Origin: an uncultured Candidatus Saccharibacteria bacterium
GTDB taxonomy: Bacteria > Patescibacteriota > Minisyncoccia > UBA6257 > 2-01-FULL-56-20
NCBI GenBank assembly: GCA_964360585.1
Contig: CAYHXC010000004.1
Location: 15,366-79,365, forward strand
Length of the DNA: 64,000 nt
Reading direction: 5' to 3'
Below are positions 5,353 through 24,120 of this stretch, piece after piece (the stretch's first letter is position 1; each line of letters opens with the position of its first letter). The notes under the pieces are model-generated. The model was given only the letters and a program-made list of their open reading frames with translations, was not told the origin of the DNA and made no database searches. The position numbers and the translations under genes were made by a program.

Positions 5353-5404
5353 TACAATCCTTGCCGTTGAAGGGCGTGAGCCCGTGGTTCTTTACTTGCA
5401 GAAT

Positions 5405-5440
5405 AAAAAAGTCCTAGTGGATAAACCACTAGGACTATGC
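5405..5440 (-). terminator. rho-independent terminator for 5435..5896
   Basis: AGTCCTAGTGG-ATAAA-CCACTAGGACT hairpin, preceded on + by A6 (T-run on minus strand). Confidence 0.65.
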
Positions 5441-5896
5441 GGCTCGAGGCAGTATTTTTAAATGCGCGATTTTTTTCCTCTTGCTATTATCTTCGCGCTC
5501 GGCAGGTCGGAGATACAGAGTCTCGTTTCTATTGCCATAGGGTTTCATCCGAACGCGGCGCTTTGCCAGTTTTTCCGCCACTAACTGTTCAAGATATTCG
5601 GTGATTTGTTCCAGTGAGAATACCTTTCCCAAGGTGCTTTCAAGGGAAATTCCCTTTTCTTCGAAAAGCAGAGATCGGACCTCATCAGCCGTTCTCCACT
5701 TCGAGCGGCTAAGAGTTGCCTCAACGTCATCTTTTGTTATAGGAGACAGGGTCAACGCGCGATAGGCGGCGCCAAAAAGCGTTCCCACAAGACCGACAGC
5801 GAGAGCTTGTGAAATCGAATTCGTTGCCCATCCAGTGACAAGAAAAAAAAGAATTCCCGTGAGGAGTGCAGTCCTTAAAACAGTACCTTCTTTCAT
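5435..5896 (-). CDS. hypothetical membrane protein
   Basis: two N-terminal TM helices, charged C-terminus. Confidence 0.4.
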   Translation of the reverse strand: MKEGTVLRTALLTGILFFLVTGWATNSISQALAVGLVGTLFGAAYRALTLSPITKDDVEATLSRSKWRTADEVRSLLFEEKGISLESTLGKVFSLEQITEYLEQLVAEKLAKRRVRMKPYGNRNETLYLRPAEREDNSKRKKIAHLKILPRAA

Positions 5897-6028
5897 CGTA
5901 ATCCTCCCCGTGAGCTAATTAGGTTGTAGCAATTTTTTTTATTTTCTCCAAATTGGAGCGATGAAAAAAGAAGAGAAATTTGATCGGATCCTTGCTTTAT
6001 GGGATAGAAGAGTCTAGGGTGAGCATAT

Positions 6029-6580
6029 ATGGCTTTCTTTAAGAAACCAGGAGGGTTCGGCGGTGGTCGCCGAGAGGATAGAGGCGGGGATCGTGGCGGC
6101 AGTCGCTTCGGAGACAAACCGCGTTTTGGCGGCGGCAAACCCAGCTTTGGCAACAAGGGCGGATTTCGTGGTTCCGATGATCGCGGCGGTTTTGGCGGAC
6201 GTCCTCCAGTCCAACTTTTTAAAGCCACGTGCAGTAATTGCGGGAAAACCTGCGAAGTGCCTTTTCGACCGACAGGAGAAAAGCCGGTGTATTGCAATGA
6301 TTGTTTTGGCGCGACCAAGGGCCGCGAAGGCGGCGCCCGCAGTTTTGAGAAAAGAGATTTCAAACCACGTGAATCTTACCGACCGAGAGAGGTTGTTCCA
6401 GCGCCCGCTCCAGATAAGCGGATTGATGATCTCAAGAAACAACTCGACGCGATTCAAAGAAAGCTGGATGACGTAATGCAGCTTATTACCGCCACAAAAA
6501 TTAGCGCTGTTTTGACCAAAGTGGAATCAAAGAAAAAAGAAACCACTGCCAAAAAGAAAGTTGAGCCAAAAAAGAAGTAA
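6029..6580 (+). CDS. Gly/Arg-rich (RGG-like) protein with CxxC...CxxC zinc ribbon and Lys-rich coiled-coil tail
   Basis: GGFGGGRREDRGGDRGG repeats; CSNCGKTCEVPFRPTGEKPVYCNDC; C-terminal KKK tail. Confidence 0.5.
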   Translation: MAFFKKPGGFGGGRREDRGGDRGGSRFGDKPRFGGGKPSFGNKGGFRGSDDRGGFGGRPPVQLFKATCSNCGKTCEVPFRPTGEKPVYCNDCFGATKGREGGARSFEKRDFKPRESYRPREVVPAPAPDKRIDDLKKQLDAIQRKLDDVMQLITATKISAVLTKVESKKKETTAKKKVEPKKK

Positions 6581-6594
6581 GGAATTTCTAAGCC

Positions 6595-7101
6595 ATGCAG
6601 GTTCCTTGGCGCCGATCAGATAAATTCAAGAAAGTTGATGATGGTCCGGTGTATATAACAGAAGAAGGCCTCAAAAATTTAAAAGAGAAATTAGTTCATC
6701 TAAAAAAAATACTGCCCGGCTATATTGCCGAGGCTAAGCGTACAGCGGCCTACGGCGATCGCTCGGACAATGCCGAGTATAAACAGGCTAAGGGAATGTT
6801 GCGGCGGACGAACTATCAGATTTTGGAAATTGAAGGTCAATTAAAAAGAGTTTCAGTTATTTCTTCGAAGGAAAATACATCCGGCGTGGTGCAATTGGGT
6901 TCGACAGTTATTTTAAAAACTCAGGATGGGAAAGAAAAAACATTTCAACTTGTCGGACCAATGGAAACAAATCCTGGTGGCGGACGAATTTCTCACGAGT
7001 CGCCGTTAGGGAGCGCGCTTTTAAAAAAGAAAGCTGGAGAAAGGGTAGTAGTAAAAACTGCGAAGGGATCGGAGGAATATCTGGTTCTCGAGATCAAATA
7101 A
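6595..7101 (+). CDS. greA: transcription elongation factor GreA
   Basis: GreA N-terminal coiled coil and C-terminal FKBP-like domain, motifs AAYGDRSDNAEY and GSTVILKTQDGKEKTFQLVGP. Confidence 0.8.
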   Translation: MQVPWRRSDKFKKVDDGPVYITEEGLKNLKEKLVHLKKILPGYIAEAKRTAAYGDRSDNAEYKQAKGMLRRTNYQILEIEGQLKRVSVISSKENTSGVVQLGSTVILKTQDGKEKTFQLVGPMETNPGGGRISHESPLGSALLKKKAGERVVVKTAKGSEEYLVLEIK

Positions 7102-7102
7102 A

Positions 7103-7138
7103 AAAGCCCTGATCGATCGAAATCGATAGGGCTTATGC
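7103..7138. terminator. bidirectional terminator hairpin
   Basis: AAAAAAGCCCTGATCGATCGAAATCGATAGGGCTT between convergent genes. Confidence 0.6.
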
Positions 7139-7594
7139 TGCTTTTTTTCTGGCGTTTCGCGCCCGGATCATTTCCTGAATGTTACGAGCGATACTTTCGG
7201 GTACGATGCAGTACTGCCGCTGATTGAGAGGAGTTGGTTTCCCCTTCGCTCTCCACACGAGCGGCGGGCGGCGAACAAATACCACCACCGAGGAACTTTC
7301 CTCCAGCTTGGAGAGATATCTCTCGACTCGTTCAACGAGCCTTCTCTTTGTTGCCGCGTCTTCAATGAAGACACTTCTGTGCGAGAGAATTTCAACGCAT
7401 ACTTCGAGGGCGGTTTTTCCCACGCCGCGATTGTTCCCTAGAATTTTGGCGCACGCCGCCACGGCTGTTTTTTCTTCGACTCGATTCAGAACAGAGAGCA
7501 CATCTTCCTGTCGAATGAGAGGTGCAAGCCATTCAGATAGCCTCGTGATACTCACGGATGTTTTCCGGAAAAGTCTGCGCCCCCAATTTTTCAT
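7133..7594 (-). CDS. hypothetical protein
   Basis: 153 aa ORF, slightly GC-rich, no motif recognised. Confidence 0.35.
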   Translation of the reverse strand: MKNWGRRLFRKTSVSITRLSEWLAPLIRQEDVLSVLNRVEEKTAVAACAKILGNNRGVGKTALEVCVEILSHRSVFIEDAATKRRLVERVERYLSKLEESSSVVVFVRRPPLVWRAKGKPTPLNQRQYCIVPESIARNIQEMIRARNARKKAA

Positions 7595-7773
7595 TGTATT
7601 CCTCCCTCGTGAACTGCCCCCTTTATAACAAACTCCCAGCTTTTCTTCAACTAGGCGGCATATTCCTCCATATTGTTTTCGTATTTCAAGCGTATGAAAA
7701 TCAGAGTGAAGATTAAGTGAACAATAAAAAAATCGCCGAGGGGAGCGATTTTGAAAATGTTCTAAAAAATAAG

Positions 7774-8952
7774 TTACTGTCTGATACGGATGTTAATTAG
7801 TTCTTCACTATTCTTTTTTTCTACGGCCACAGTTGTTGTTCCCTTTAAAAGATCGCTGTGTACTTCGACGCCAATCGTTCCGGAAACACTGCCGCCATGC
7901 TCGCTTGAACTTCCAGTCTCCAAGGGGAGGGCTTCGTCGCGATCAGCATCATTTTTCTCGTCAGTTTGCATCTCACTTCTCACATCTACTGCCGTCTTGG
8001 ATTCGTGGGCGATCCGAATAGCATCATTTGCCAGGTTGAATGCTTCGCCGTACAGACCAGCTTCATTTTTTACTTTGGCTTGGATCAAAAGTTCGTCGGA
8101 CAGCGTAAGAAGAGCTTCGATTTCCGAGGCATTCTCGAGACGTAGTTTATTCTCTTTTTTTGCCACGTATTTTTTTGTTTCGAGCAGTATCTTCCCAGCC
8201 GCCTTAATCTTAGCGTTCGCGGCGTGTTCGGTGCTTGAGCTGTTATCGGACTTAATTTTTTTCTCTAGTCGAACCCGGGTTTCGGTGGCGGATGAGAGCG
8301 CCTTACTGATTTTTGTTTCCAGTCGAGAGGGAGGGGGCGCGGCTTCAGGGAGGGCGATTTTTGCGCTCATCATCATTGTTGCTCCGGTGTCGCTTTGTGC
8401 GGTGCGAGCAGCAATTTTCTCATGACCCTGAAGTGTGCCCTCAAATCGCGCCGCTAAACTCGCGGCCTCACGTTCCTTGCCATTTTCCTCAAGTTTTGCC
8501 ATATGCTCCAGTGTTTTTTCCTCATGCGTTTCAAACTCGTCCGAGAGTTCGGTTTCAGTTTTCGCGTCAAGTTTCCCTTGTAGCGCGAGGCGCGATGCTT
8601 CTTCGAGACGACGACTGGCCAGTTCAGCCTCCCAATCGCCTTTAGCCTCTACGCCAAACGAGAGAGCGCCCACGACTGGTTCGTTCACCTGTTTTTTGAC
8701 AATATAGAGCAGATCGCCGGGCAATGTTTTCTCGGCTGCCAGCGAAGTTCCTCCGCCGATCAAAAAGATAATCACAAAAATGATAGCGGGCACTTTGGTA
8801 AGTTGGTACAAGAAATGACGACCGACAGGTTTTTTGATAGCGAGATCAGCCTCAATGAGACGGCTTAAATTGCCGCGAATGATATTTTTGCGTTCAAGGT
8901 CGAGACGGATCTCGTTCCGGGCTTTTTTCAGTTGTTCAAAAAGTGGTTCCAT
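7774..8952 (-). CDS. putative anti-sigma factor (single-pass membrane protein)
   Basis: located immediately downstream of the ECF sigma gene; cytoplasmic N-domain, TM helix VPAIIFVIIFLIGGGTSLAA, extracytoplasmic coiled-coil domain. Confidence 0.5.
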   Translation of the reverse strand: MEPLFEQLKKARNEIRLDLERKNIIRGNLSRLIEADLAIKKPVGRHFLYQLTKVPAIIFVIIFLIGGGTSLAAEKTLPGDLLYIVKKQVNEPVVGALSFGVEAKGDWEAELASRRLEEASRLALQGKLDAKTETELSDEFETHEEKTLEHMAKLEENGKEREAASLAARFEGTLQGHEKIAARTAQSDTGATMMMSAKIALPEAAPPPSRLETKISKALSSATETRVRLEKKIKSDNSSSTEHAANAKIKAAGKILLETKKYVAKKENKLRLENASEIEALLTLSDELLIQAKVKNEAGLYGEAFNLANDAIRIAHESKTAVDVRSEMQTDEKNDADRDEALPLETGSSSEHGGSVSGTIGVEVHSDLLKGTTTVAVEKKNSEELINIRIRQ

Positions 8953-8957
8953 GGATT

Positions 8958-9455
8958 TTAAAGTAACTTCTTTAAGGATTGCATTGCCCGATTGAGTTTT
9001 ACGGAAACGTTATTGGCCGTGATATTCATTATTTCGGCAATTTCCTTAGGGTCAAGGTCGTCAAAATAGCGAAGAGTGAGAAGCGTTCGTTCGTCTTCTT
9101 CGAGATCAGCCATCTGTTCTTTGATGTTTGCAAGAAGGGTGTTCCGTTCGATGTCTTTATGTCCGGCATACGACGGTTCGGCAATCTGATCATTCTCGAG
9201 CATCGCATCAAGTTCCGCCTCTTTTTTCTTTCGCGATTCGTCGATGATCAAGTTTGTGGCAATTTTATAAAGCAGAGCGCGGATGTTTTCTATCTCTTTT
9301 CCGTCGGACATATAAACCCAGAGTTTAGTAAAGGCTTCCTGCATTAGATCCTCGGCGCGAGCCTTGGAGTAGACGCGAAAGTAGCAGTGGCGGTAGATCG
9401 CCTCGGCATGGTCATCATATGCTTGGAGAAAAATATTTTTCGGATTTCTTGCCAT
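8958..9455 (-). CDS. ECF-type RNA polymerase sigma-70 factor
   Basis: region 2 (EDLMQEAFTKLW) and region 4 HTH (EIAEIMNITANNVSVKLNRAMQSL); 165 aa. Confidence 0.8.
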   Translation of the reverse strand: MARNPKNIFLQAYDDHAEAIYRHCYFRVYSKARAEDLMQEAFTKLWVYMSDGKEIENIRALLYKIATNLIIDESRKKKEAELDAMLENDQIAEPSYAGHKDIERNTLLANIKEQMADLEEDERTLLTLRYFDDLDPKEIAEIMNITANNVSVKLNRAMQSLKKLL

Positions 9456-9588
9456 AGTCTGTGACGTTGAGATTGGGTCCTTCTTTCATATTATATACCA
9501 CTACTCGTGGTCAAGGAGGTAAGAGGGAAGTTCATGATCCGTCGTACATACAAAGGTCGCGTATTATGAACCTTTTACATTTAACTCT

Positions 9589-10521
9589 ATGAACAAAAAA
9601 ACATTTATCGTTTCGTTACTCGCAGTAGCCGTCCTCGTCGGATCTCAGGCTGTCCTTGCGAAAGAGCAAGTAGCGCACAAAGAAAATAAAAAAAGTGAAT
9701 CACATCAAGAAGTGAAAGCGCATACTTCTGTTGCGCCTTCAATTCCCTCCAATACTTCCTTAGAAATTGGACAAAATGGTCGAGTCAACATATCCGATGC
9801 ACGCGTCATGAACATTTCTGGATCAGTCATAACAGCCACGACCAGTTGGGGTGGATTCACCATGGTCTGGACGATCAACGTGAATGGCAATACAAACTTC
9901 AACGCTCGCTATGGCGGAGTCTTGAATCTCGAGAATATTGCTCCCGGCGATCACATTAGTGTCAAGGCGACGATTACCGGAAACGGCCCGACAGTGCTCG
10001 CCTCGGCCATCACCGATCTCTCGATGCAACGTCGAAACGCTACCTTCTTGGGAACCATTACGAGTATTAATTCGGGAGCACAGAGTTTTGTGGTGAATAC
10101 GAAAGAGCGTGGTTCGCAAACAATTCTTGTTTCCTCGTCGACTAAGTTTTTGGGAACGCTCAACAACTTTTCTGCTCTGACTATCGGAGCCAAGGTGCAG
10201 ACGAGTGGTATCTGGAACTCAGATCAGAACTCGCTTCAAGCCGCTCATGTTTTGATCTCCAAAGAGAAACAGAACGAAGAGCGTGTTTTCCAGGGAACGA
10301 TCAAATCAGTGAATGCCTCCACGACACCGCAAACAGTTGTGGTGCACATTGAAAACAGTGATCAGACAGTTACGCTTGCCGCTGACACGGTGATTCTCAA
10401 TTTCTCCTGGCAGCATGTACCGCTTACTGCCTTCAAAGTAGGGGATATACTTCGTGTCTATGGTATCGGCCAGGATCTTTCGATCGGCGCCACCGTGGTT
10501 CGAGATATTAGTCTGAAATAG
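9589..10521 (+). CDS. secreted protein with repeated beta-rich domains
   Basis: signal peptide MNKKTFIVSLLAVAVLVGSQAVLA; internal repeats (ISGSVITAT / ITSINSGAQ / IKSVNAST). Confidence 0.5.
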   Translation: MNKKTFIVSLLAVAVLVGSQAVLAKEQVAHKENKKSESHQEVKAHTSVAPSIPSNTSLEIGQNGRVNISDARVMNISGSVITATTSWGGFTMVWTINVNGNTNFNARYGGVLNLENIAPGDHISVKATITGNGPTVLASAITDLSMQRRNATFLGTITSINSGAQSFVVNTKERGSQTILVSSSTKFLGTLNNFSALTIGAKVQTSGIWNSDQNSLQAAHVLISKEKQNEERVFQGTIKSVNASTTPQTVVVHIENSDQTVTLAADTVILNFSWQHVPLTAFKVGDILRVYGIGQDLSIGATVVRDISLK

Positions 10522-10532
10522 GAGAAAGTGTG

Positions 10533-10562
10533 AATCAAAAAACGGCCTTCGGGCCGTTTTTG
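10533..10562 (+). terminator. rho-independent terminator
   Basis: AAAAACGGCCTTCGGGCCGTTTTTGC. Confidence 0.75.
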
Positions 10563-10589
10563 CTTTTTACATCAAAAGGGTAGATCGAC

Positions 10590-10717
10590 AAATTCGAAGT
10601 CCTAAATACGAAACTCGAAACAATAATCAATGCTCAAGTTTTCAAATATTTTTAAACTTTTAGAATTTTCTTTCAAGCGAATTGTTTCGGATTTCGAAAT
10701 TCGATTTTCGTGTTTCA
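10590..10717. repeat. MITE-like TCGAAA-rich element, copy 1
   Basis: inverted ends CGAAACTCGAAACA ... TGTTTCGGATTTCGA; related copies at 39305-39432 and 51202-51247. Confidence 0.55.
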
Positions 10718-10845
10718 GTAAACAAAATAGCCTTTTATCTGGGGGCAATCCCGCAAGCGGGAGATCTTTTGCAAAATAAAATTGTTGCAAAAGGATAGAA
10801 TTACTTCGAGGAGAGATCTCGCCGAAGCCAGACCGTCCTAAGACT

Positions 10846-10985
10846 AAAAGGAATTCCCGCCTCCTTATATGAGGAAGGGGTTAGGGTTTAGGGAATAGGG
10901 GTTAGTAAATGCAAGATTGCATCCACTCTACCCCAAACCCTATCCGCTATACCCTTGTCTCATATAAGGAGGCCACCCCCAGATG
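10846..10985. repeat. long imperfect palindrome with telomere-like G-tracts
   Basis: outer inverted repeat CCTCCTTATATGAG...CTCATATAAGGAGG; core GGGGTTAGGGTTTAGGGAATAGGGG (four G-tracts) and central ATGCAAGATTGCAT palindrome. Confidence 0.55.
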
Positions 10986-11228
10986 AAAAGCTACTATTCA
11001 ATTGATGCCCTATTATATGCGATAAGTCAGCATTTGTCAAGTGCCGGTTCCTCCCCAGTTTTGAGGAGAAACGACCTGTCCCGCCATAGCTTTAGCGGCG
11101 GCGGACAAGAATCAATAATGCCTTAGGTCAAAAAAGGAGTCAAGGCAAGTTCGGGATAACCTCTGTATAGGCAGTGGATAAGGCGTTTTCCGGTTATTTA
11201 TGAAAAGCGCATGTTAGAATGACATACT

Positions 11229-11795
11229 ATGGGATTTGATTCATTACCAAAGAATGAAGGAGATATTTCAGAGGCTGATTTAGAAGCACTGAGACAGGAA
11301 CTGGTTCCCATTTTTGATCCGCGATTTTCCACGGCTGGGCATGGGACGAATTTGGAGGCGGCTGAACAGGCCATTCAGGAAGGTTTGTATGCTCGGCAAG
11401 CTCCGAGTTTGGAAACAACTGCTCTGGGACTTGAGGATAATGATAAAGATTTAAAAAAGATTCTTGCATGGCCGCACGGAAAGCCGCAAGCCATTGTCAT
11501 CATTATGCTTCCACGAGACATGGAACGAACTTACGGTGGAGTGGGCCCCGAGGAACACTTGTGGGAAAGTTCTAATAACGAGTTGAATCCCTACCGCCTA
11601 CCGAAAAAATATATTAAGGGGTACATAAACATAGAAGAAAGAAAGTTAGTTCTCAATCCTGCCTTTGAAGAAAACCCAACGATGCCCCCTCCCATCCTCC
11701 ATAATGCTGACATTTCAAAAATAGGAAGAACCTCAGATACGCCAGTAGAAATTCCTAAGGCTAATTCAGGTGATTCTGGTGAGGACGTTTGGTAG
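11229..11795 (+). CDS. hypothetical protein
   Basis: 188 aa ORF, acidic, no motif. Confidence 0.4.
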   Translation: MGFDSLPKNEGDISEADLEALRQELVPIFDPRFSTAGHGTNLEAAEQAIQEGLYARQAPSLETTALGLEDNDKDLKKILAWPHGKPQAIVIIMLPRDMERTYGGVGPEEHLWESSNNELNPYRLPKKYIKGYINIEERKLVLNPAFEENPTMPPPILHNADISKIGRTSDTPVEIPKANSGDSGEDVW

Positions 11796-11808
11796 GCTTT
11801 TTTGTAAT

Positions 11809-12234
11809 TTAGCCCTCAGGGTTTATAGAAAGGAGTTGAGAAGACTTTTCAATCTCTTCTTGTGATAAATCTTCCCAAAGGTCGCTAATCTGTGTTTTTT
11901 TGTGGAGGGGGTCGTTCGCCTCTCGAGGATGGAGATGGAAGTGGAGATGGCTTACCTTTACACGTCCTTGCGGAATAAAAGGCCGATAGTTCTGCCGGAT
12001 ATCGCAACCAGGGGCTATGTGCTTCAAAGTTTTCTCTTCGAATTCAATTAATAACTCCATGATCTCTTTCCGTTCCGCTTCGGTGGTTTCTGATAATTTT
12101 TCCAGGTGTCGTTTGGGGATTACGAGTAGATGCCCGGACATGAGTCGGGGATTTGAAAGACAAACATAGGCCAGTGCGCCTTCTTTTAAAATCCGGGTTC
12201 TGGTGAGATCGAGATCACAGAATGGGCAGTCCAT
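11809..12234 (-). CDS. HIT-family (histidine triad) hydrolase
   Basis: HIT motif HLHFHLHPR; 141 aa. Confidence 0.75.
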   Translation of the reverse strand: MDCPFCDLDLTRTRILKEGALAYVCLSNPRLMSGHLLVIPKRHLEKLSETTEAERKEIMELLIEFEEKTLKHIAPGCDIRQNYRPFIPQGRVKVSHLHFHLHPREANDPLHKKTQISDLWEDLSQEEIEKSSQLLSINPEG

Positions 12235-12317
12235 TTTTGGATGATACCATAAAGCCGATCCAAGTTTACAAAGACAGGAGAGAGTGTTATTTCTTGGAGT
12301 AGTAGGAAGGGATAGTC

Positions 12318-12638
12318 ATGGGAAAACAAGAACGTGTCTGTGGTAGTTGCACTGCCTGTTGTAAAACTCATCCTGTTTTCGAACTGTTCAAGCTTTGGAA
12401 CGCATGGTGCACAGAATGCCAGGTTGGCAGGGGCTGTCGTATTTACTCCAATCGTCCGAAAGGGTGTCAAGATTTTCAGTGCCAGTGGCTTATGGGATGG
12501 GGCAAGGATGATGAGCGGCCCGATCGGACAAAGTTAGTTCCCGACTTCATTGAGCTTGGAGAACTTGGGTTAACTCTTATGCTCCATGAAGTTACAGAAG
12601 GATCTCTCTTAAATGGCTTTGCGAGGAGATGCTGGTAA
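12318..12638 (+). CDS. Cys-rich YkgJ/UPF0153-like zinc/iron-chelating domain protein (possibly frameshifted)
   Basis: CGSCTACCKTHP (CxxCxxCC) plus additional Cys pairs; ORF stops 10 nt after an overlapping ATG of the next ORF. Confidence 0.5.
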   Translation: MGKQERVCGSCTACCKTHPVFELFKLWNAWCTECQVGRGCRIYSNRPKGCQDFQCQWLMGWGKDDERPDRTKLVPDFIELGELGLTLMLHEVTEGSLLNGFARRCW

Positions 12639-12844
12639 TGACCTGCCGTGGCGAGAACTGTTCGGTGCTACACCTCTTTGAAGAGAGAATCCCGCAGCCA
12701 TACTTGAGTATTGGGGATTGGAATGCCTTCTTGGGCAAGCGTGTCCAGAGTAGTTGGAAGCTACCGATGCTTGACCGGGTTTTCACTGACTACCAAGAGG
12801 CGCTCCTTGCAGTGTTCAAGGGGATTTATGCTGGTCGTGCTTAG
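12629..12844 (+). CDS. hypothetical ORF, possibly the frameshifted C-terminal part of the YkgJ-like gene
   Basis: overlaps the upstream ORF by 10 nt in the +1 frame; ends at the island boundary. Confidence 0.25.
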   Translation: MLVMTCRGENCSVLHLFEERIPQPYLSIGDWNAFLGKRVQSSWKLPMLDRVFTDYQEALLAVFKGIYAGRA

Positions 12845-12848
12845 CCAA

Positions 12849-13520
12849 TCAAATCTCCACCCAATCTCGGAACTGCCCGATTGTCTTGGCGCCAAGGGTG
12901 TAGTGCCGCACTAGCGGGCAGCGGACCCAGTCGGCTTTTAACGGAAAGCGGGCATGGATATTGTGATAGACCGTCAGTCCGAGTTGGGGAGCGTCACCGT
13001 CCCAGAGGACGCCAATAGCACTAAGAGAGGTATTGGCGCTTGGTGTCACTCTCTTTTTGCCGCGTGGTGCGAAGTCGCGCTCCAGTACCGTTGGCGTCTG
13101 GCAGTTGGTAGCTATCGTAAAGGCCTCAAGACCGTACATAGCCGTCTTGATCGCGTAGGGGTCAGTATGGCGACATGTGAGCTTTGCCACGTTGTTGTAG
13201 AGAACGAGCAGCGTGGGCGATACTCCTTTTGCAAGAGTTCGCAGCTGGCGGGCTCCTTTATCAATTTTCTTTCGAGCGCGGTCGCCGGGTTCACCGCCAA
13301 AGACACCAGTTGACCCTCTTAGCTCCAGTTCCTCAATCAGCCGTTGCTCCTCGACTGTAGGATCGAACTGCTTGACCTCAGCGATCACTCGTTCGCCAGA
13401 CAAAACAAGTTCGTAGTCAGGACGCTCCTCTCCCTCATCTTCCGCGGTCTCAATGCGTCTCCAACGGACGTTGTTGCGGTCACAGAACTCCTCGAAGAGT
13501 TGTTCAGATTTGGTTGGCAT
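12849..13520 (-). CDS. PD-(D/E)xK nuclease-like protein (restriction endonuclease fold)
   Basis: RPDYELVLSGERVIAEVKQFD matches the PD...(E)xK core; last gene of a 3-gene overlapping operon. Confidence 0.4.
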   Translation of the reverse strand: MPTKSEQLFEEFCDRNNVRWRRIETAEDEGEERPDYELVLSGERVIAEVKQFDPTVEEQRLIEELELRGSTGVFGGEPGDRARKKIDKGARQLRTLAKGVSPTLLVLYNNVAKLTCRHTDPYAIKTAMYGLEAFTIATNCQTPTVLERDFAPRGKKRVTPSANTSLSAIGVLWDGDAPQLGLTVYHNIHARFPLKADWVRCPLVRHYTLGAKTIGQFRDWVEI

Positions 13521-14355
13521 GTTGACCGTGTGGCGCGGCGCCCCGCGAGTCTTTCGTGACCGCGAGAAACACTAGGCGTTCGTAGAATGCGAGTACCCAG
13601 GCCATGTGGTGAGGATGAGCTGGGTCAAATGTGTAGAATGCATACAGGAAGGCGGAGTCTCCGATGAAACGAGACTGCCCGTCGTTTAGGACCTGCTGCG
13701 TTATGGCCGCCACGCGATGGACGGTTTCTTCGCTGCGGATCGCTGGCGGATGAAAATGCACGATTTTCACCGAGATATCCTGCGGCAGGATCGTTCGCGT
13801 TTCATGGAAAAACAGCCCTCTGATTATTCTCTCCATAACGCGGTTCACACGCACATAGTCGACCTTATAGCCGACCTCCGTGCCCAGCAGGATGCCCGAG
13901 CGTGTCCATTGATCCACAAAGCGCAGACTCCCACTGAATGCCTTCCTAAAACCTGCCTTCCGCGCGTTACTCAAAGCCGAAAGGACGCTCTCGCGTGCAC
14001 GGAGCGCGACGGGATGTTCCCCCGCTTCTCGACTCAGGGTGAGAATCAGACAGAGGTACTCATCGTCCTTGGACGCGTTGCCATTGCACGTCCGGCACGC
14101 TGGCACACAGACCAAATCTCGTTGTGCGACCTTAGGCAGTGTGCACTGAGGCGGCAGATGATCGGCCGTCAACTGCGTGTTACCACCGCAGTAAACGCAC
14201 TGGTCGCTCAGCCAGCGCCGCCTGTAGTGCCTCCTCTTCCCCACGACCACCTCGTTGGTTAGAGAATACCATCCTCGAGAAGTCCAGCAAAGATCATCGG
14301 CCTTCTGGCGTGAGCGAGACCAGTCAGTCGGCCTTGCCAGACTTTCTGCGGTCAC
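13504..14355 (-). CDS. HNH endonuclease domain protein with extended C-terminal domain
   Basis: CVYCGG...TADHLPP...CRTCNGN (CxxC-DH-CxxCN HNH signature); overlaps neighbours by 17 and 32 nt. Confidence 0.55.
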   Translation of the reverse strand: MTAESLARPTDWSRSRQKADDLCWTSRGWYSLTNEVVVGKRRHYRRRWLSDQCVYCGGNTQLTADHLPPQCTLPKVAQRDLVCVPACRTCNGNASKDDEYLCLILTLSREAGEHPVALRARESVLSALSNARKAGFRKAFSGSLRFVDQWTRSGILLGTEVGYKVDYVRVNRVMERIIRGLFFHETRTILPQDISVKIVHFHPPAIRSEETVHRVAAITQQVLNDGQSRFIGDSAFLYAFYTFDPAHPHHMAWVLAFYERLVFLAVTKDSRGAAPHGQHANQI

Positions 14356-15556
14356 GCGCCTCTACTGCCTGAATCAGTGAACGAAGATGTTCGTGCAACC
14401 GCTGCCTTTCCCCAGGAGACATGCTCGCTTCGTCTGCCGAACGTGGCCGCATGTGCCGCTCCCATAGTTTGCACGTGATCGAGTCCTCTTGGGGCGGCGG
14501 GTACCAACCATATTCCCCTTGTCGCTGCCGCCTTTGCTCGTCGCTTAGGCTCTGCCACTCAGCCGCCATCGCGCGGAGGTCCCGCTTTAGCTCTGTCGCT
14601 TGGACAAACTCTTGGTCCTCACGAAGGAAGAGCTTGGCTAGGTCGGCGTGCAGCTTGTCGCCAGAGACGAATGCCATGCAGAAGGGAAGGTAGAAGCAGT
14701 ACTCCAGATCGAGGCGGTTTGTCCGTCTGGTTCCGATCAGTCGGTCGCGGAGGGCGATGATGAAGGACAGCTCGACACGGAGGCAGTACGCTGCGTACGG
14801 TGCAAAGCGATCAAGGTAGGTAGCGCCTGACTCAACCCACCGCATCTTGATGGCATCCCGTGCGCTCGCCGGTAGGTCGTGCTCTTCGAGCAGCCATTCC
14901 AGCAAGGCCTGCTGGATGGTCAATTGCGCAAGGAGGTTATCCAAGGCCTCACGAACCTGGGTGAGGGAGGAACAGGACGGAATGACTAGGTACGCCCGTT
15001 TGAGGCGATCACGATGCACAGTAAGATCTATTTCCGCAGTCGTGCGTCGCCAACGACTTGCCAATGCCTCCTCTGCTTCCTCGAACATTCCATCCTGCCA
15101 TCGCATGATGGCCCAGCGCTCCGGTGGGGTATCGATGAAGACGCCTGCTTGACCGTCCGCGGTGTGAATAGGTTCGCCCCCGCCAACCACACAGCTCCCC
15201 TGCATTGGCACAAGATTGCCCAGTAACGACCCAGCGCAGAGGGTACGGTAGTCCGCATTGATGCCGGAGTCTCCCTCGCGGAGCTTCCGAGCGAGACGCA
15301 CTACTTCACCGGCCGAGAGCAACTGTGAACGTTCAATCTTCTTTAGGTCCGCGAGGATCTCCATGATTAGAATCGGGACGACGTTCACGTAGTAGTGCTT
15401 CTGAAGGAAGTCGATTTCCTCTCCAGAAAGCCCCTGCAGCGCTGACTTGTCCAGGATTACGATGGGACCCATGGGCAGCGCCATGATAGCGCGCGGTGAC
15501 GCACATGGCAGCCCGTCACCGGCACCATGCATTTTGACTTTCGTCGAAGAAGCCAC
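14324..15556 (-). CDS. hypothetical 410-aa protein (first gene of HNH/PD-(D/E)xK operon)
   Basis: long GC-rich ORF, no recognisable motif; likely start at MGPIVILDK. Confidence 0.4.
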   Translation of the reverse strand: MASSTKVKMHGAGDGLPCASPRAIMALPMGPIVILDKSALQGLSGEEIDFLQKHYYVNVVPILIMEILADLKKIERSQLLSAGEVVRLARKLREGDSGINADYRTLCAGSLLGNLVPMQGSCVVGGGEPIHTADGQAGVFIDTPPERWAIMRWQDGMFEEAEEALASRWRRTTAEIDLTVHRDRLKRAYLVIPSCSSLTQVREALDNLLAQLTIQQALLEWLLEEHDLPASARDAIKMRWVESGATYLDRFAPYAAYCLRVELSFIIALRDRLIGTRRTNRLDLEYCFYLPFCMAFVSGDKLHADLAKLFLREDQEFVQATELKRDLRAMAAEWQSLSDEQRRQRQGEYGWYPPPQEDSITCKLWERHMRPRSADEASMSPGERQRLHEHLRSLIQAVEARDRRKSGKAD

Positions 15557-15636
15557 GGAGCTGAGACCTCGTCAGCGAACCGGAGATCGGCGCCGACAGT
15601 TGCCGGCGACGCGGCTTTCGCCGATGATGCTCTGCT

Positions 15637-16599
15637 ATGCGCGGCCACCAAACTAACAAGGCGCTGGAAAGAGAGCGCCAAGCCATCGTGGACTACATGG
15701 CAATGTCAGCCCCCGACGAACGCGCCGAAAGCTTGGAGAAGATTAAGTCCGAACTGGTTCTCGGTCGACAGATTGACGCGTGGGACGTCCACACCGACCG
15801 CGAGCGATGGTGGGTCCTGACGGCGCCGATCAACTTGTACAATCAGAAGCAGTTTCCAAGTCTCGACGTCGCCTTCTCGTTCCATGTTGGATTGATGGCT
15901 CGCGTGATGGAGCACGGCGATCGGACAGCCCGACCCGAGCAGGCCGCACGGTTCACGCGTGCGTGGCGCACTTGGGAGGGCGCTGCCAATGCTCTCGATG
16001 AGGCGGATGCGACAGAGGAGTTTCAGGCGATCGGGATGCGGTGCCGAGAGAGTCTTCTTGCGTTCGTGCGGGAAGTGGCAAAGGTTGCGCACATCGATGG
16101 CACGCCGCCCAAGGCGGCCGACTTCGTCGGCTGGTCTGACGTGTTGGCCAACACGATTGCCCCAAGCGACGGCGCCGAACGACGGCGTGGCTATTTGAAA
16201 GCGATCGCCAAATCGACCTGGGAGCTCGTGAACTGGCTCACTCACTCTTCGAGCGCTACCCGATACGACGCCCACTTCTGCATCGAGGCGACGGAGCACG
16301 CTCTTCGCACGTGGTCTCTGGCGATCCTGCGGCACGAAGTGGGGGTTCCCGAGCGTTGCCCGAACTGTAGCTCCTATCGACTGACCTCATGTTCTCACCC
16401 AATCGGAAAGGGAGTTGTCCAGCACTTCACTTCCTGCGACGTGTGCGACTGGCAAAGCGATCCTGAACACCGGCGTGCACACGGAGGCAAGGAAGAGTCG
16501 CACCACCGCCGAAAACGCAAGCCGACGACACCGTGCGTGTTCGTCGATGTCCCATTGGTAGGCAACCCACCGCCGCCTCCGACGAGGACACGTAGGTAG
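15637..16599 (+). CDS. hypothetical protein with C-terminal Cys4 zinc ribbon
   Basis: CPNCSSYRL...CDVCDW; divergent from the nuclease operon. Confidence 0.4.
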   Translation: MRGHQTNKALERERQAIVDYMAMSAPDERAESLEKIKSELVLGRQIDAWDVHTDRERWWVLTAPINLYNQKQFPSLDVAFSFHVGLMARVMEHGDRTARPEQAARFTRAWRTWEGAANALDEADATEEFQAIGMRCRESLLAFVREVAKVAHIDGTPPKAADFVGWSDVLANTIAPSDGAERRRGYLKAIAKSTWELVNWLTHSSSATRYDAHFCIEATEHALRTWSLAILRHEVGVPERCPNCSSYRLTSCSHPIGKGVVQHFTSCDVCDWQSDPEHRRAHGGKEESHHRRKRKPTTPCVFVDVPLVGNPPPPPTRTRR

Positions 16600-16964
16600 C
16601 GCAGTCAAACATTGCTCGACAAGCTCCCCCACCGGAATGAAACCCGTTCCCATTAGTCAGCGCGGCAAGCTCGGTAACGCCGGCCGTGGATTCGGCCGCC
16701 GCGCGTACATTGCGCGGCTCCGCAAAGAGCTCAGGGACGGTTATCTCCGCGAGAATGAGACCAATCTTCAGCTTGCCAGCGAGTGGTTTCACCTCGATGA
16801 CGGGGCTGAACAAGACGTTGGACTGGGGATGAGCCCAGCATAGCCCAGGCGATCCACTCTTCCGAGCCGCAACGGTTGCCGTTTTTGCCTCGCGGCGTGC
16901 GGCCATGGCCGGGGCGGTGACGCTCAGGATTTGACGAATTGCGGTCAGTGAGTAGACTGAATTC

Positions 16965-17204
16965 ATGCCTCTCAATGTCACCAAGCAAACCGAGCAGGAG
17001 ATCGAAGAAAAGGTCCGTTCCGGCGGCTACCAGTCGGCCGATGAGCTCATCCAGGAAGGCCTGGCGCTGATCGAAGCGCGGGAAGCGTTCCGCCGAGCGG
17101 TCGCCGAAGGCCAGGCGGAGCTGGACCGCGGTGAGTACGTCACACGGGAAGAGTCGCGCCGGCGCATGGCCGAGCTCGCTGACCGTTACCGTCAGCGAGG
17201 ATGA
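16965..17204 (+). CDS. parD: ParD-family RHH antitoxin
   Basis: 79 aa, GGYQSADELIQEGLALIE motif of COG3609-type antitoxins; ATGA overlap with downstream toxin. Confidence 0.7.
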   Translation: MPLNVTKQTEQEIEEKVRSGGYQSADELIQEGLALIEAREAFRRAVAEGQAELDRGEYVTREESRRRMAELADRYRQRG

Positions 17205-17497
17205 GCCAGGCGTATCGGCTCGCCCCCCGCGCCCAGGCCGACGTCGAAGACATCTTCCGCAAAATCGCTGACGACGACTTCGAGGCTGCTCTCCGCGTTG
17301 ACCGAGAAATCGACGAAGCCTGTCTCCTGCTCTCCACGCACCCCCAGATGGGTCACACGCGAGAAGATCTCGGCATTGGCGCGACGTATCGCGTCTGGCC
17401 GATCTACTCCTACTTGATCATCTACCGCCCCGACTCTGATCCCCTCGAGATCGTCCGCGTCTGGCACGGCGCCCAGAAGAAGCCGAGCCTATTCTAG
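17201..17497 (+). CDS. parE: ParE/RelE-family toxin
   Basis: 98 aa, YRLAPRAQADVEDIF...YLIIYR...LEIVRVWHGA typical ParE. Confidence 0.75.
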   Translation: MSQAYRLAPRAQADVEDIFRKIADDDFEAALRVDREIDEACLLLSTHPQMGHTREDLGIGATYRVWPIYSYLIIYRPDSDPLEIVRVWHGAQKKPSLF

Positions 17498-17761
17498 AGC
17501 ATCGTATCATCGCGACGGCCGTCGTTTCCGAACTGCAACGGTTGCGGTTTTCGCGGGATCATCAGGGAAAATCCGGGACTTTTGGGGACTCCGCTTCTTC
17601 GGCGGCGACCCCTCTGGAACCGTTGAACCACAAGACTTTCCAGCGTTTTCTTCGCTCTCGATACCTTTGCACCCATCAACGCGGCTGCATACCAGATCGC
17701 TGGCTGGGGGTTATCGACCACACGTGGTCTCTTCTATACGCGCTCGATCATTCGAGGGATC

Positions 17762-18595
17762 TTGGTTCAATCTAATATTGTCACGCCGGAAGGTGATGGT
17801 ACCGTTATTGTCACGAGCGCGGAGGCAATGAAGGGCGCGACCAAGACGTATTACTTTGATATTTTTAGCTATAACCGCGCTGTGGATGAAAGAATTGATC
17901 ACGGTACGATCCTTAGTGCAAAGCACGTACAGGATCAGATTGTGGCACTTCTGAAAGGAAACGAGGCTCCTACTCACACGACGATTACGAGGCTCAAGCC
18001 GACACGACAATCTGTTACCCGCAAGGTAACAGCGCAGTCCCCAGTCTTACTGCATCTCTTTGACAGTTCAGGTCGCCATACTGGGCCACTGGGTGCACTG
18101 GGCGCGGAGGAGCAGATTCCCAACAGTCGATACGATCGCGGAACCGGGATCCAAACACTCTATTTCGACGATGCGGACACCTACAGCGTACAAATCGTAG
18201 GGACAGGAAGTGGGGTGGTTCACTTGACAGTCGAAGAATTGCTTGGCGAGGCTCTCGTCGAGACGGTAACGTATTCCGGCATTCCGGTGACTCCGGTATC
18301 GACCGCTCAATTTGATTTTGCGACGATGGCGGACTCCCACCGAGTCCACGTGGACGCGAACGGTGACGGCCGTGTGGACTTCGTGAGCCGACCGGATTCA
18401 GAGATGCTGCGAGGAGACCTCGATGGAGATCGAGACGTTGATCTTGTCGACCTCGGGTACGTTTTGGCGGTCCGGAATACGTCCGCGGTGGGGACGCGAG
18501 ATCCTCGGGATTTAGACAGTGACGGCAGGATAACAACCCTCGACGGGCGAAAACTGCAATTGCTTTGCACACGAGCAAGGTGTGCTGCGAACTAG
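17762..18595 (+). CDS. dockerin-domain surface protein
   Basis: C-terminal duplicated Ca-binding dockerin-type repeats DLDGDRDVDLVDLGYVLA and DLDSDGRITTLDGRKL. Confidence 0.5.
   Translation: MVQSNIVTPEGDGTVIVTSAEAMKGATKTYYFDIFSYNRAVDERIDHGTILSAKHVQDQIVALLKGNEAPTHTTITRLKPTRQSVTRKVTAQSPVLLHLFDSSGRHTGPLGALGAEEQIPNSRYDRGTGIQTLYFDDADTYSVQIVGTGSGVVHLTVEELLGEALVETVTYSGIPVTPVSTAQFDFATMADSHRVHVDANGDGRVDFVSRPDSEMLRGDLDGDRDVDLVDLGYVLAVRNTSAVGTRDPRDLDSDGRITTLDGRKLQLLCTRARCAAN
18036..18213. repeat. 178-bp exact direct repeat (copy 1; copy 2 at 18894-19071)
   Basis: identical nucleotide stretch inside two adjacent paralogous genes. Confidence 0.8.
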
Positions 18596-18613
18596 TATGC
18601 TATAATCCAATAC

Positions 18614-19300
18614 ATGAGAGTCAGTGCATCTCCAGAGAGGAGACGGACAGGCGTCGTTGTACTTGCAACGGGCTTGCTGTTCGCGGGATTGCTGATTTGG
18701 AAAGGCACCCACCTAGTTGCTGGTTGGATGAACGTGCCAAGCGAGCAAGAGTCGAGTCATTTCTCTGAGGATGTATCACAAGAGAACAGTGTGAGACCGA
18801 AGGGGCAGGAGAACATTCGACACTCTGATGCTGAAGGGCGTTACCACTACGTGATTGTTGAGAGTAGCGTGCTAGAGCGGGACAACTTATCAGAGTCCCC
18901 AGTCTTACTGCATCTCTTTGACAGTTCAGGTCGCCATACTGGGCCACTGGGTGCACTGGGCGCGGAGGAGCAGATTCCCAACAGTCGATACGATCGCGGA
19001 ACCGGGATCCAAACACTCTATTTCGACGATGCGGACACCTACAGCGTACAAATCGTAGGGACAGGAAGTGGCGAGTTTGCGGTACGGATAGGAGCCTTTG
19101 TCGTGAGTGGATCGGAAGAGAGGTTGGTCGCTCCTTTGATATTTCCGGTTCCAATAGTTAGCACAGCGGACCTACGCGCACAGATGACTATCATCGAACG
19201 CATTGATCAACGAACGAAACTTGAGATTGACGTTGATGGAGACGGAGTGGTGGATGAGAGGCTGCAAAGTCGTCCTGATGCAAACAGGGAGAACATTTGA
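18614..19300 (+). CDS. membrane-anchored paralog sharing a 59-aa identical segment with upstream gene
   Basis: N-terminal TM VVVLATGLLFAGLLIW; segment SPVLLHLFDSSGRHTGPLGALGAEEQIPNSRYDRGTGIQTLYFDDADTYSVQIVGTGSG identical to 17762..18595. Confidence 0.45.
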   Translation: MRVSASPERRRTGVVVLATGLLFAGLLIWKGTHLVAGWMNVPSEQESSHFSEDVSQENSVRPKGQENIRHSDAEGRYHYVIVESSVLERDNLSESPVLLHLFDSSGRHTGPLGALGAEEQIPNSRYDRGTGIQTLYFDDADTYSVQIVGTGSGEFAVRIGAFVVSGSEERLVAPLIFPVPIVSTADLRAQMTIIERIDQRTKLEIDVDGDGVVDERLQSRPDANRENI

Positions 19301-19302
19301 CC

Positions 19303-19902
19303 TCACTTGGTGCCGCCTTGAATTTTTCGTGCAACTCCAAGGCAAAGAAGGGCTGCCAGAAGCAGTTGTAGCGTATCCGGAAGTGGGACAGCCCTTACGG
19401 ACCCGTTCGACACGGTGGCTGTTAAGGGATCTCCGAACGAATCTCCCAGCGCATTGACCGACAGGTCCAACGAACTCTTCCCGGGCGACCCGGAGAGGAA
19501 CGTGATTGTCGCTAGCGTGAAGCTGCCCGCTTGCAGCTCGTCAAGATCGAGCGGATCGTCAAACGAAAGCTCGAACAGGTTCAGCAGTCCAGGAACACTG
19601 CCATCAAAGGATGTAAGGCTACCCAACCCGAAGAGGTCTAGCTGATCGCCGAGCAGCGAATCCCCAAAGATAACGTTCGCGAAGGTCACGACGGTGGGAT
19701 CAAAAAATATGTCGACGTCGAAGGTGCTCAAAGAAGGCGCCACAGCATCGCCGAGACCGGATATCGTCAAGTCGACGCTAACCATGGCCCCTGAGCTGAC
19801 CACTTGCACAGAAGGATTAAGCCCGAGGATTGGAGTGCCGTTGGCACGTGTGGCCAACAGGACGATGGCCACAATTGTGCGCACAAAGACGCGGTGCATC
19901 AT
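19303..19902 (-). CDS. cohesin-like secreted protein with C-terminal hydrophobic anchor
   Basis: signal peptide MHRVFVRTIVAIVLLATRA; beta-rich VSVDLTISGL...FDVDIFFDP; C-terminal LPDTLQLLLAALLCLGVARK (PEP-CTERM-like/sortase-like tail). Confidence 0.35.
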   Translation of the reverse strand: MMHRVFVRTIVAIVLLATRANGTPILGLNPSVQVVSSGAMVSVDLTISGLGDAVAPSLSTFDVDIFFDPTVVTFANVIFGDSLLGDQLDLFGLGSLTSFDGSVPGLLNLFELSFDDPLDLDELQAGSFTLATITFLSGSPGKSSLDLSVNALGDSFGDPLTATVSNGSVRAVPLPDTLQLLLAALLCLGVARKIQGGTK

Positions 19903-20069
19903 TATCCCCCCTGCCGATGCGTTACAGCCGTGTTGATTTGCTATCAATGACAGCCTCACCCACTCCAAGCATTTTTGTCAAACGATGAAATTGCGTCCGG
20001 CTCAGGCCGGATTTTCGCTTTACTTTCGTTTATCCGGTGGTATCATGAATCTCGAACCTAATCGCCCTT

Positions 20070-21083
20070 ATGTTCGGAATAACGGGGTGGTGTGGTGCTG
20101 TGGACATGGACAACAGGGGCCTCATTCTCGGGAATAATCCCGAACATAACGTTCCGGCCATCCTCGGGGGGGCCAACCAGAGCCTGCGATCACTCGCCAA
20201 GGCGTACTTCGTAACCGAAGTAGCCGGGCAGGCTAAGGGGACGATCGAGGCCAAGCACCACGACCTCACCCGGTTCATCGCGTTCTACGAGACGCTCCTG
20301 GGTCACGACGATCCGCGCGAGTGGTACCGATCCGTTACGCGCGAGTTTCTGAAGCAGCTCGCTCACGGCGAACTGTCTCAGGCGACCATCGTCCGCACCT
20401 ACGCCAGCGTCCGGCACTTCGCGCGGTGGATCCACTTCAAAGTGAGGCCCTTCCCGCTCGGCTGCCCGTGCGATGACGTGAAGCCTCCGGCCGAACCTGA
20501 ATCCGAATGGAAAGGACTCAGCCGGGCCGACGAGCTCCGACTCCTCGGAGCGGCGCAGACGCTTCGCATCCGTCCCGGTCGCGGCACGAACCAGGGACTT
20601 CGCGATCACGCCGCGATCGCCGTCTTACTCGGATCAGGACTGCGAGTCTCGGAGTTGTTGTCGCTGAAGCGAGAACAGTACACCGGCCGCGGTTTCCGGA
20701 ACGTCCTCGTGAAAGGCGGTCGCATCCGCGACTCCGTCCCAGTGCAGAAGGAAGCCCGGGACGTACTCGAACAATGGCTCGCCGCCTGCGGCACGGATCC
20801 CGGACCGATCTTCACCACGCGTAGCGGCAGGTCGCTCACGCGCCACCAGCTCTTCGAGATTCTCCAGCGTGTCGCCGACCAAGCCAACGCCCACCGGAAG
20901 GATGGCGAGCCGATCCACGTCTCCCCACACGTGTTGAGACACACCTTCCTCCGAAAGCTCGCTGAGGAGAAGGGCGTCCACTACGCTAAGGAAGCAAGCG
21001 GACACAAAAGCGACTGCTACATCTGGCGGTACGTGAAACCAAGTCAGCAGACACTCGCCGACGCGATCGACGGCTTGGCGTAG
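20070..21083 (+). CDS. tyrosine site-specific recombinase/integrase (XerD-like)
   Basis: catalytic R...HxxR...Y: RVSELLSL, HVLRHTFLRKL, GHKSDCYIWRY. Confidence 0.8.
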   Translation: MFGITGWCGAVDMDNRGLILGNNPEHNVPAILGGANQSLRSLAKAYFVTEVAGQAKGTIEAKHHDLTRFIAFYETLLGHDDPREWYRSVTREFLKQLAHGELSQATIVRTYASVRHFARWIHFKVRPFPLGCPCDDVKPPAEPESEWKGLSRADELRLLGAAQTLRIRPGRGTNQGLRDHAAIAVLLGSGLRVSELLSLKREQYTGRGFRNVLVKGGRIRDSVPVQKEARDVLEQWLAACGTDPGPIFTTRSGRSLTRHQLFEILQRVADQANAHRKDGEPIHVSPHVLRHTFLRKLAEEKGVHYAKEASGHKSDCYIWRYVKPSQQTLADAIDGLA

Positions 21084-21104
21084 CAACACCCGAATGCTAA
21101 CAAG

Positions 21105-22601
21105 TTGCCCCGCTCAGCATCATTCGCCTTGCTCGGGCAACGGCGGTCAGCAAATCGCGCTAAGTGCATTAGTTGTGAAACACCGATGCCCACCTCGGCA
21201 AAACCAAGCGGCGCAGTGGTCGCCAAATTGCGGGCTCTTGCCCTCCAAGAGGAACTGGAAAATCGCCTCAAGCGCCACCATCCCGATGACCTGATTCCAC
21301 ACTTGGCGAGGCGTCTTGCGAATGTCCTCAAGGAACCTCGCCTCATGGCATCTTGGCCACCGCATTTTCTGGCTCACGCTATTGCAGCGAACTGTGCCTT
21401 TCACCGCCCTTGCTACCGCGATGCCATCACCGATGATCGAATCCGACGTCTGGTGAATGTATACCACCAACATCCAGATCCGGTCCCGGACTATTTTCTC
21501 GAGCAGGAGCAGCGCATCGACCTGTTCTTGATCAACACTGCACGTCAGCAGTTCTACCTTCAGCACGGCGAAGCGCAACCCGACATTGCACGTGCCATAC
21601 TTCTCTTCGACGAGAGCGCGTACGGAAAGACGCTCGTCAACATCCGCGCCCACCTTGGCTTCGGCTTTTCCGACTGGATCAAGTTCCTCTTCATACTAAG
21701 CGCGGCGGTGATGAGGCGCCCTGGCATGATCATTGAGCCCAGTTATTTTCACGACATGCCCCCGAGCATTCTCCCCGCTAGCACGATTCGTGCATTGGTC
21801 AGCGCCATCTCCCAATCTGCTCCCGACGTCGCCGCGGCATATCTAAAGCTTCGCTCGACGCTTCAAGGCTTGATATTCAATCTGTACGTCCCCAGTGTGT
21901 TTCTTAAGCGGCCCCTGTTTTGCATGACGGACGGCCATTACGTGGCAGTTCATAAACTATTTCTCCGAGGACTCATCACAGGTGGGCTATTTGATCTCGC
22001 GCGGGAGCATTCGCCAGTGACGTTCGGCGAAGAATTTGGGGACGCCTTTGAACGTTATACAGGTTCCATCTTGGCCGCTATTCCTGAAGCTCGCGTCTTC
22101 ACAGAAAAAAACTTGCAGAAGTACACAGGCAAGAAGGTGTGCGATTTCGCCGTAGTTGGCGATGCGTACGTTCTGTTTGTCGAGGCGAAGGGTACGGAGT
22201 ATCGTTCCTTATTCGCTTCGGACGGTGCCCTCCGCGGTGATAATTCGACCACAAAGCTCGGCGAGGCTGTCGACCAGGTTACATCAACAGCTCGCCTGAC
22301 GAGGAGTGGCGAGTTTCAAGAGCTCTTCGGCGATACCAGCGGGAAAAAGCTAATCGCGGGCATTGTAACGTTCCGCCATATCTATTTCGCGAATGGCGAC
22401 CCCTATTGGACAGATTTTATACTTCCGCGGGTCAAAACGGTCGATGAGGTCGCACTCGGATCCCTGTTTGCTTTTAGGCCGCAGGTCTTTGATATTCGGT
22501 CCTTGGAGATGCACTTTGGAGGCTCTGCGAGGTGGCTTCCCAGTTTTTCATTTGCCGATAAGGGGAGAGAAGAACACCCTCTATGTTCCTCGGAAGATTA
22601 A
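21105..22601 (+). CDS. hypothetical 498-aa protein, possible C-terminal PD-(D/E)xK-like motif
   Basis: KKVCDFAVVGDAYVLFVEAKG resembles a D...ExK nuclease core; otherwise no motif. Confidence 0.35.
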   Translation: MPRSASFALLGQRRSANRAKCISCETPMPTSAKPSGAVVAKLRALALQEELENRLKRHHPDDLIPHLARRLANVLKEPRLMASWPPHFLAHAIAANCAFHRPCYRDAITDDRIRRLVNVYHQHPDPVPDYFLEQEQRIDLFLINTARQQFYLQHGEAQPDIARAILLFDESAYGKTLVNIRAHLGFGFSDWIKFLFILSAAVMRRPGMIIEPSYFHDMPPSILPASTIRALVSAISQSAPDVAAAYLKLRSTLQGLIFNLYVPSVFLKRPLFCMTDGHYVAVHKLFLRGLITGGLFDLAREHSPVTFGEEFGDAFERYTGSILAAIPEARVFTEKNLQKYTGKKVCDFAVVGDAYVLFVEAKGTEYRSLFASDGALRGDNSTTKLGEAVDQVTSTARLTRSGEFQELFGDTSGKKLIAGIVTFRHIYFANGDPYWTDFILPRVKTVDEVALGSLFAFRPQVFDIRSLEMHFGGSARWLPSFSFADKGREEHPLCSSED

Positions 22602-22735
22602 ATTGCCTCCTGATTTTTGGTTTATCATTAATGGTAGAAGCTCTATCATTCTATCTGCCAGTGCTTATCCACCTCGGAAAACGTAGGTGGTTTTTTATTT
22701 TGCCAATAAAAAACCGTTGTCCAAGGGGACGGCGG

Positions 22736-24113: not shown

Positions 24114-24120
24114 AGTAAAA

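Follow-up and report, generated by a model that had tools for sequence, protein, structure and literature searches.

The four genes described here, named A, B, C and D, form a block at one end of a GC-rich island in a Patescibacteria metagenome-assembled genome (MAG) contig (CAYHXC010000004.1), of which a stretch of 64,000 nucleotides (nt) was analysed and is referred to as the window. The block probably consists of single-gene modules that were inherited independently and ended up stacked within the cargo of a horizontally acquired island, and it is not read as one system because the gene combination is not conserved across genomes. Three of the four genes encode predicted nucleases (A, PIN; B, HNH; C, PD-(D/E)xK). 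We observed the folds, motifs and catalytic-residue conservation of these proteins, no conserved partners, and recurrent placement of their relatives in restriction, defence and mobility settings. All four families are uncharacterised, are built on well-known catalytic folds, and lie outside Pfam, NCBIfam and PADLOC save for matches to the HNH motif. The genes of the block are as follows.

14324..15472, minus strand: gene A, PIN-domain protein carrying a helical insert, ~190 amino acids (aa) long, probably 382 aa from MGP; longest open reading frame (ORF) to 15556
13504..14244, minus strand: gene B, HNH (His-Me finger) motif at the N-terminus, followed by a conserved but uncharacterised domain of ~170 aa at the C-terminus, probably 246 aa; longest ORF to 14355
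12849..13520, minus strand: gene C, stand-alone PD-(D/E)xK nuclease-fold protein, 223 aa, overlapping B by 17 nt
15637..16599, plus strand: gene D, divergent, 320 aa; N-terminal domain conserved, fold unknown; Cys4 zinc ribbon at the C-terminus, as judged from family conservation

The co-occurrence census told stacked solo genes apart from a true operon. It covered 8 kb on either side of the best 80 of at least 329 relatives of A, searched with profile hidden Markov models (HMMs) for A, B and C and by tblastn for D, and, with the same HMMs, the best 80 of at least 346 metagenomic relatives of B, 46 of which had at least 1 kb upstream and 46 at least 600 nt downstream. Neither C nor D (by tblastn) stood next to A in any of the 80 A loci, and a B-like gene, a distant one, was present in a single locus. 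No A gene was found next to B in the 80 B loci (46 with the upstream sequence), and C was found next to B in one of the 80 (46 with the downstream sequence), on the same contig as locus L091 discussed below. Clustering of the neighbours yielded no conserved partner for A (80 loci) or for B (80 loci), and the only recurrent clusters of A neighbours were integrases, serine recombinases and type I restriction-modification (R-M) genes. In addition, the closest homologues of A (53-56% identity) are without B and C, and individual look-ups found solo A, solo B and solo C loci. The initial annotation had proposed one operon, with two nucleases and their partners acting as a single anti-phage system; in other genomes, the genes are essentially not found together, only the B-C pair recurring, once, and each gene turns up alone elsewhere. 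That several nuclease folds are encoded in close succession on one strand of an island is not enough to make them a system.

The four ORFs of that annotation were confirmed in their longest forms at 14324-15556 (A, minus strand), 13504-14355 (B, minus strand), 12849-13520 (C, minus strand) and 15637-16599 (D, plus strand), and the translational coupling claimed for them stood in part. The 17-nt overlap of B and C is real, while the 32-nt overlap of A and B depends on GTG 14355, the start of the longest B ORF, and is insecure because the evidence favours GTG 14244: the public database gene call for B is 246 aa, the N-termini of 20/20 B homologues lie at or past residue 38-50 of the long ORF, and GAGGTGG precedes GTG 14244. 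B is probably 246 aa from this codon, with a 79-nt spacer after the stop of A. An MGP... N-terminus, corresponding to ATG 15472, is found in nearly all of 49 aligned A homologues, and with this start A is probably 382 aa and the divergent spacer between A and D is 164 nt, not the shared 80 bp originally described. No ORF is present in the 79-nt and 164-nt spacers flanking A, no terminator-like site was found between A, B and C on the minus strand, and a promoter scan returned one site upstream of ATG 15472, not above chance. A single transcript may cover A, B and C in the window; if so, it would be an outcome of same-strand stacking and not a sign of shared function.

The split-PIN family of A is the most promising lead, being widespread and recurrently found inside type I R-M operons. 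The protein has the alpha/beta/alpha fold of PIN domains, so the earlier description of A as lacking any recognisable motif was wrong. Its core strands fall into two groups (residues 32-35, 56-59 and 97-99, then 295-298 and 316-319) separated by the helical insert of ~190 aa, and conserved acidic residues sit at the ends of the core strands. D36, S298 and D300 are each conserved in 50/50 sequences, E66 in 48/50 and D314 in 33/50, and some members carry a SEC-C motif at the C-terminus. Searches of A against Pfam, NCBIfam, PHROGs and PADLOC returned nothing usable, including no match to the Pfam PIN model; its sequence gave only noise against the PDB, and its structural model was without a significant match in BFVD. 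The family has at least 329 relatives in GTDB species-representative genomes, spread over many bacterial phyla and one Asgard archaeon, and was found in six of 2.9 million viral contigs. Searches by tblastn with A and C against plasmids and phages yielded essentially nothing.

In five Bacteroidota type I R-M operons (L020, L026, L035, L039 and L073, at about 5200-14300 in each), the gene order is hsdM-hsdS-[A-family PIN gene]-DUF3800/PDC-M04A-small ORF-hsdR-YgjP peptidase, and two unrelated candidate modules, the A-family gene and DUF3800/PDC-M04A, are nested within one R-M operon. Elsewhere, the immediate neighbours of A include MmeI-type enzymes, GmrSD, Mrr and integrases. PADLOC applied to 145 immediate neighbours of A provided family names without a clean enrichment figure, as redundant HsdS models dominated the output. 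The position of A between hsdS and hsdR in these five operons is shared with latent nucleases of the PrrC/RloC type, prrC having the same placement in the EcoprrI locus. PrrC is an ABC-ATPase with an anticodon-nuclease domain, whereas the fold of A is PIN, and most A loci lie outside R-M operons. A also differs from VapC-type PIN RNases in its size of ~380 aa, in the splitting of the PIN core by the helical insertion of ~190 aa, and in the SEC-C motif of some members. VapBC was rejected for A, there being no VapB-like antitoxin, no conserved neighbour in the 80 loci and no ORF in the spacers.

The HNH signature recognised in B by the initial annotation (C53xxC56...D65H66...C87xxC90) is kept in all homologues that cover those columns. 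Profile matches are confined to the HNH region (PADLOC PDC-M01B, E 4e-6; PtuB, E 0.003; PHROG HNH, 2e-4), and a profile of B matched PDB entry 4h9d at E 0.004. Downstream of the motif, K96-D97-D98-E99 is invariant, as are R169, R176 and H184, and the conserved C-terminal domain carries RVxERIIRGLFFHE. Residue N91, the usual N/H metal ligand after the second CxxC, varies among R, N, Q, Y and H, and the invariant K96-D97-D98-E99 could stand in for this ligand. The family has at least 346 metagenomic relatives and is absent from 2.9 million viral contigs, an absence that argues against a phage homing endonuclease, a reading rejected for B. One relative of B resides inside a Gabija-like/ParE/TumE island, the closest homologue adjoins a DUF262/GmrSD-like gene, and a further relative adjoins a SIR2 gene on a Marinobacter plasmid.

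The PD-(D/E)xK assignment first made for C was borne out by an alpha-beta-beta-beta-alpha-beta core with an intact D...ExK motif, as in that superfamily. For C and D, searches of Pfam, NCBIfam, PHROGs and PADLOC returned nothing usable, and both sequences gave only noise against the PDB. The genomic context of C was looked up in five loci; one relative lies among GmrSD, BrnTA, type I R-M genes and transposases, and another adjoins a VRR-NUC gene. The family of D is represented by 906 cluster representatives at E <= 1e-3, and its Cys4 ribbon (C241, C244, C267 and C270), which the initial annotation had placed at the C-terminus, is present in 52/52 family members behind an N-terminal domain of ~230 aa. 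In some members, a C-terminal AIG2/GGACT (gamma-glutamylcyclotransferase-like) or SEC-C domain takes the place of the plain tail. Solo D genes are found on plasmids, including the 5.85-kb Paracoccus pAES4. On the Rhizobium plasmid pRSpC104a, a D-family gene (L175, 3992-5509) lies ~2.5 kb from Shedu-related genes.

As the initial annotation had stated, the gene combination falls outside described systems, and none of the four proteins maps to one. Gabija, Zorya, Lamassu, Druantia and other catalogued systems were rejected because PADLOC v2.0.0 and NCBIfam match only the HNH motif of B, and an R-M system was rejected because no methyltransferase domain was found in the ORFs tested from 11.2 to 26 kb. 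Septu PtuB and PDC-M01B resemble B in being HNH proteins of ~220-280 aa with a non-HNH C-terminal part, but the match is limited to the ~50 residues of the HNH motif, and the B-family genes are solo. Septu itself was rejected, with no PtuA-type ATPase in the block and a weak match to PtuB (E 0.003) in the motif only. PDC-M01 was likewise rejected, as the PDC-M01B match spans only residues 49-100 of B and there is no PDC-M01A match among A, C and D. C shares the PD-(D/E)xK fold and an intact D...ExK with GAPS1, other single-protein PD-(D/E)xK defences and HamA of Hachiman, and C genes are found singly in defence or mobile islands; GAPS1 offers a validated single-protein precedent. C is without sequence similarity to GAPS1, HamA or any PADLOC model, and its 223 aa leave little room for a separate sensor domain.

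Under the reading of the block as stacked single-gene modules, each protein would be a self-contained conflict or defence effector, analogous to the single-protein nuclease defences. GAPS1 is a validated example with a PD-(D/E)xK nuclease (bioRxiv 10.1101/2023.03.28.534373), and genes embedded in defence operons often turn out to be defences (bioRxiv 10.1101/2024.01.29.577857). The nuclease would stay silent until activated by a cue derived from an invader, with A predicted to cleave RNA and B and C predicted to cleave DNA. The helical insert that splits the catalytic core of A would most likely be a sensor or autoinhibitory domain of this putative RNase, and B and C may work together as a two-gene cassette in their small clade. 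We tentatively suggest, as a possibility for the A family, a new and widespread anti-phage or abortive-infection system made of a single protein, whose PIN RNase would be restrained by the insert and which, in some lineages, would act as a PrrC-like guard of type I R-M operons, with B and C separately constituting a new two-nuclease cassette. If the single genes are active, several uncharacterised families would join the one-protein nuclease defences, and the split-PIN family is the best candidate among them.

Several observations weigh against the independence of these genes or against their assignment to defence. The B-C pair is kept in one other contig, from soil, with a 4-nt stop/start overlap and protein identities of 58% and 62%. 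At L049, from a Myxococcota MAG, 9 nt separate an A homologue from a distant B-like gene upstream of it; this B-like gene is full-length (hhalign probability 97%, 209 columns), and the gene order is opposite to that of the window. Given the B-C pair and L049, some functional linkage among A, B and C is possible. None of the four families is tied to phage defence by experiment or by a characterised homologue, and A, C and D are without a PADLOC or NCBIfam match. The catalytic competence of B, as judged from its alignment, is not certain because the N/H metal ligand is not conserved. Neighbourhoods are also heterogeneous, with many A, B and C loci amid ordinary metabolic genes. Type I R-M, GmrSD and Gabija-like genes, integrases and transposases are among the neighbours of these families; many other loci look ordinary. 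As a separate observation on L049, a 4.3-kb stretch (390-4640) contains the B-like HNH gene, the A-family PIN gene and, ~1 kb downstream of the A homologue, an RtcB RNA ligase; that a ligase for RNA repair stands beside a predicted RNase may be of significance.

Among the alternatives, the one that fares best, although we consider it rather doubtful, takes B and C as a two-gene nuclease cassette (HNH plus PD-(D/E)xK) of a small clade, with A and D as unrelated neighbours. The stop and start codons of the pair overlap by 17 nt in the window and by 4 nt in its only close relatives (at the 58% and 62% identity given above), and a clade-specific insertion is common to the B of the window and the partner-bearing B homologue. 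The two contigs on which the pair was seen, L091 and L092, are 99.9% identical and so amount to only one independent second instance, and more distant homologues of B and C are solo. Another alternative, which is unlikely, takes the genes not as anti-phage genes but as selfish or addiction elements, for example HNH endonucleases of the homing type or toxin-like nucleases by which the island is stabilised. Their patchy distribution across phyla, their solo occurrence beside integrases, transposases and toxin-antitoxin pairs, and the presence of D on small plasmids would fit such elements, but B was found in none and A in only six of the 2.9 million viral contigs, the loci showed no intron, intein or repeated target-site context, and there is no conserved antitoxin-like partner.

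The stacked modules appear to lie in a horizontally acquired island that also carries a toxin-antitoxin pair, an integrase and a relative of the anti-phage protein GapS1, in keeping with the mobile island and its toxin-antitoxin module and integrase that were initially reported. The features of the island outside the block, and the island itself, are given below.

12849..22700, no strand: GC-rich island of the Patescibacteria MAG contig, 55-62% GC over most of its length, from the composition profile
16965..17497, plus strand: parD-parE type II toxin-antitoxin pair (Pfam ParD_antitoxin, E 2.5e-4; ParE_toxin, E 1e-18)
20070-21083, plus strand: tyrosine integrase (Pfam Phage_integrase, E 2.6e-19)
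21105-22601, plus strand: GapS1-like gene, 498 aa (NCBIfam antiphage_GapS1, E 5.9e-34, 117.7 bits against a 320-bit cut-off)

The composition profile gives 55-62% GC at ~13-22 kb compared to 44-49% GC in the flanks left of the island, and the database entry for one of the proteins gives a Patescibacteria MAG as its source. The right edge of the island is marked by ruvB (23115-24113), where housekeeping genes resume. No attachment-site repeats were found at the island borders, and no tRNA was found at its edges. The parD-parE pair is cargo of the island and lies outside the nuclease block. The start codon of the GapS1-like gene is 22 nt past the integrase stop, and its 498-aa product is graded, from its profile score, as a distant relative of the validated single-protein PD-(D/E)xK defence because 118 bits fall below the 320-bit family cut-off.

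A mis-assembly, in which the GC-rich block was joined from another organism into a chimeric contig and its position in Patescibacteria is not real, is quite unlikely. The step from 44-49% GC in the left flank to 55-62% GC, a PEP-CTERM-like tail in one ORF, and best homologues from Deltaproteobacteria, Phycisphaerae and Nitrospira would all fit such a chimera; however, the contig carries low-GC sequence to the left and to the right of the island, an integrase is encoded in the island itself, and the same proteins occur in several independent assemblies. The identities of the genes are unaffected either way. Very improbable, and already largely refuted by the co-occurrence data, is the reading of A, B, C and the divergent D as a single new anti-phage or abortive-infection system under a shared promoter, with two or three nucleases acting jointly: A, B and C do follow one another closely on one strand, no terminator-like site was found between them, B and C overlap and are paired in one other contig, and L049 has an A/B-like adjacency, but the A/B overlap is probably a start-codon artefact, C or D accompanies A in 0/80 loci and a B-like gene in one, the 80 B loci contain A in none and C in one, no partner cluster is conserved, the closest A homologues (53-56%) are without B and C, and the gene upstream of B in L091 is a divergent DUF262/GmrSD-like gene and not A.

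Further observations were made in the remainder of the island and beyond its right edge. The parDE pair is flanked by 29-nt imperfect direct repeats (16860-16888 and 17526-17554) that are 86% identical and contain an internal hairpin (GCAACGGTTGC); they may act as terminators or mark the limits of a cassette that was inserted there. A 185-nt direct repeat of 98% identity (18036-18220 and 18894-19078) runs within two neighbouring paralogous ORFs (17762-18595 and 18614-19300), both without a Pfam match, which suggests a recent duplication or gene conversion. The 221-aa ORF at 19303-19968 (minus strand) ends in a hydrophobic-then-basic C-terminal tail that, read from the sequence, resembles a PEP-CTERM anchor (VPLPDT...LLLAALLCLGVARK). 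This tail has no HMM support; such a tail would be unusual for Patescibacteria and would fit a foreign source for the island. Finally, just to the right of ruvB, at 24052-25441 (plus strand), a nucleotidyltransferase ORF (NTP_transf_2/Polbeta) overlaps a CYTH-domain ORF by 77 nt, and this pair might be a signalling or conflict module.

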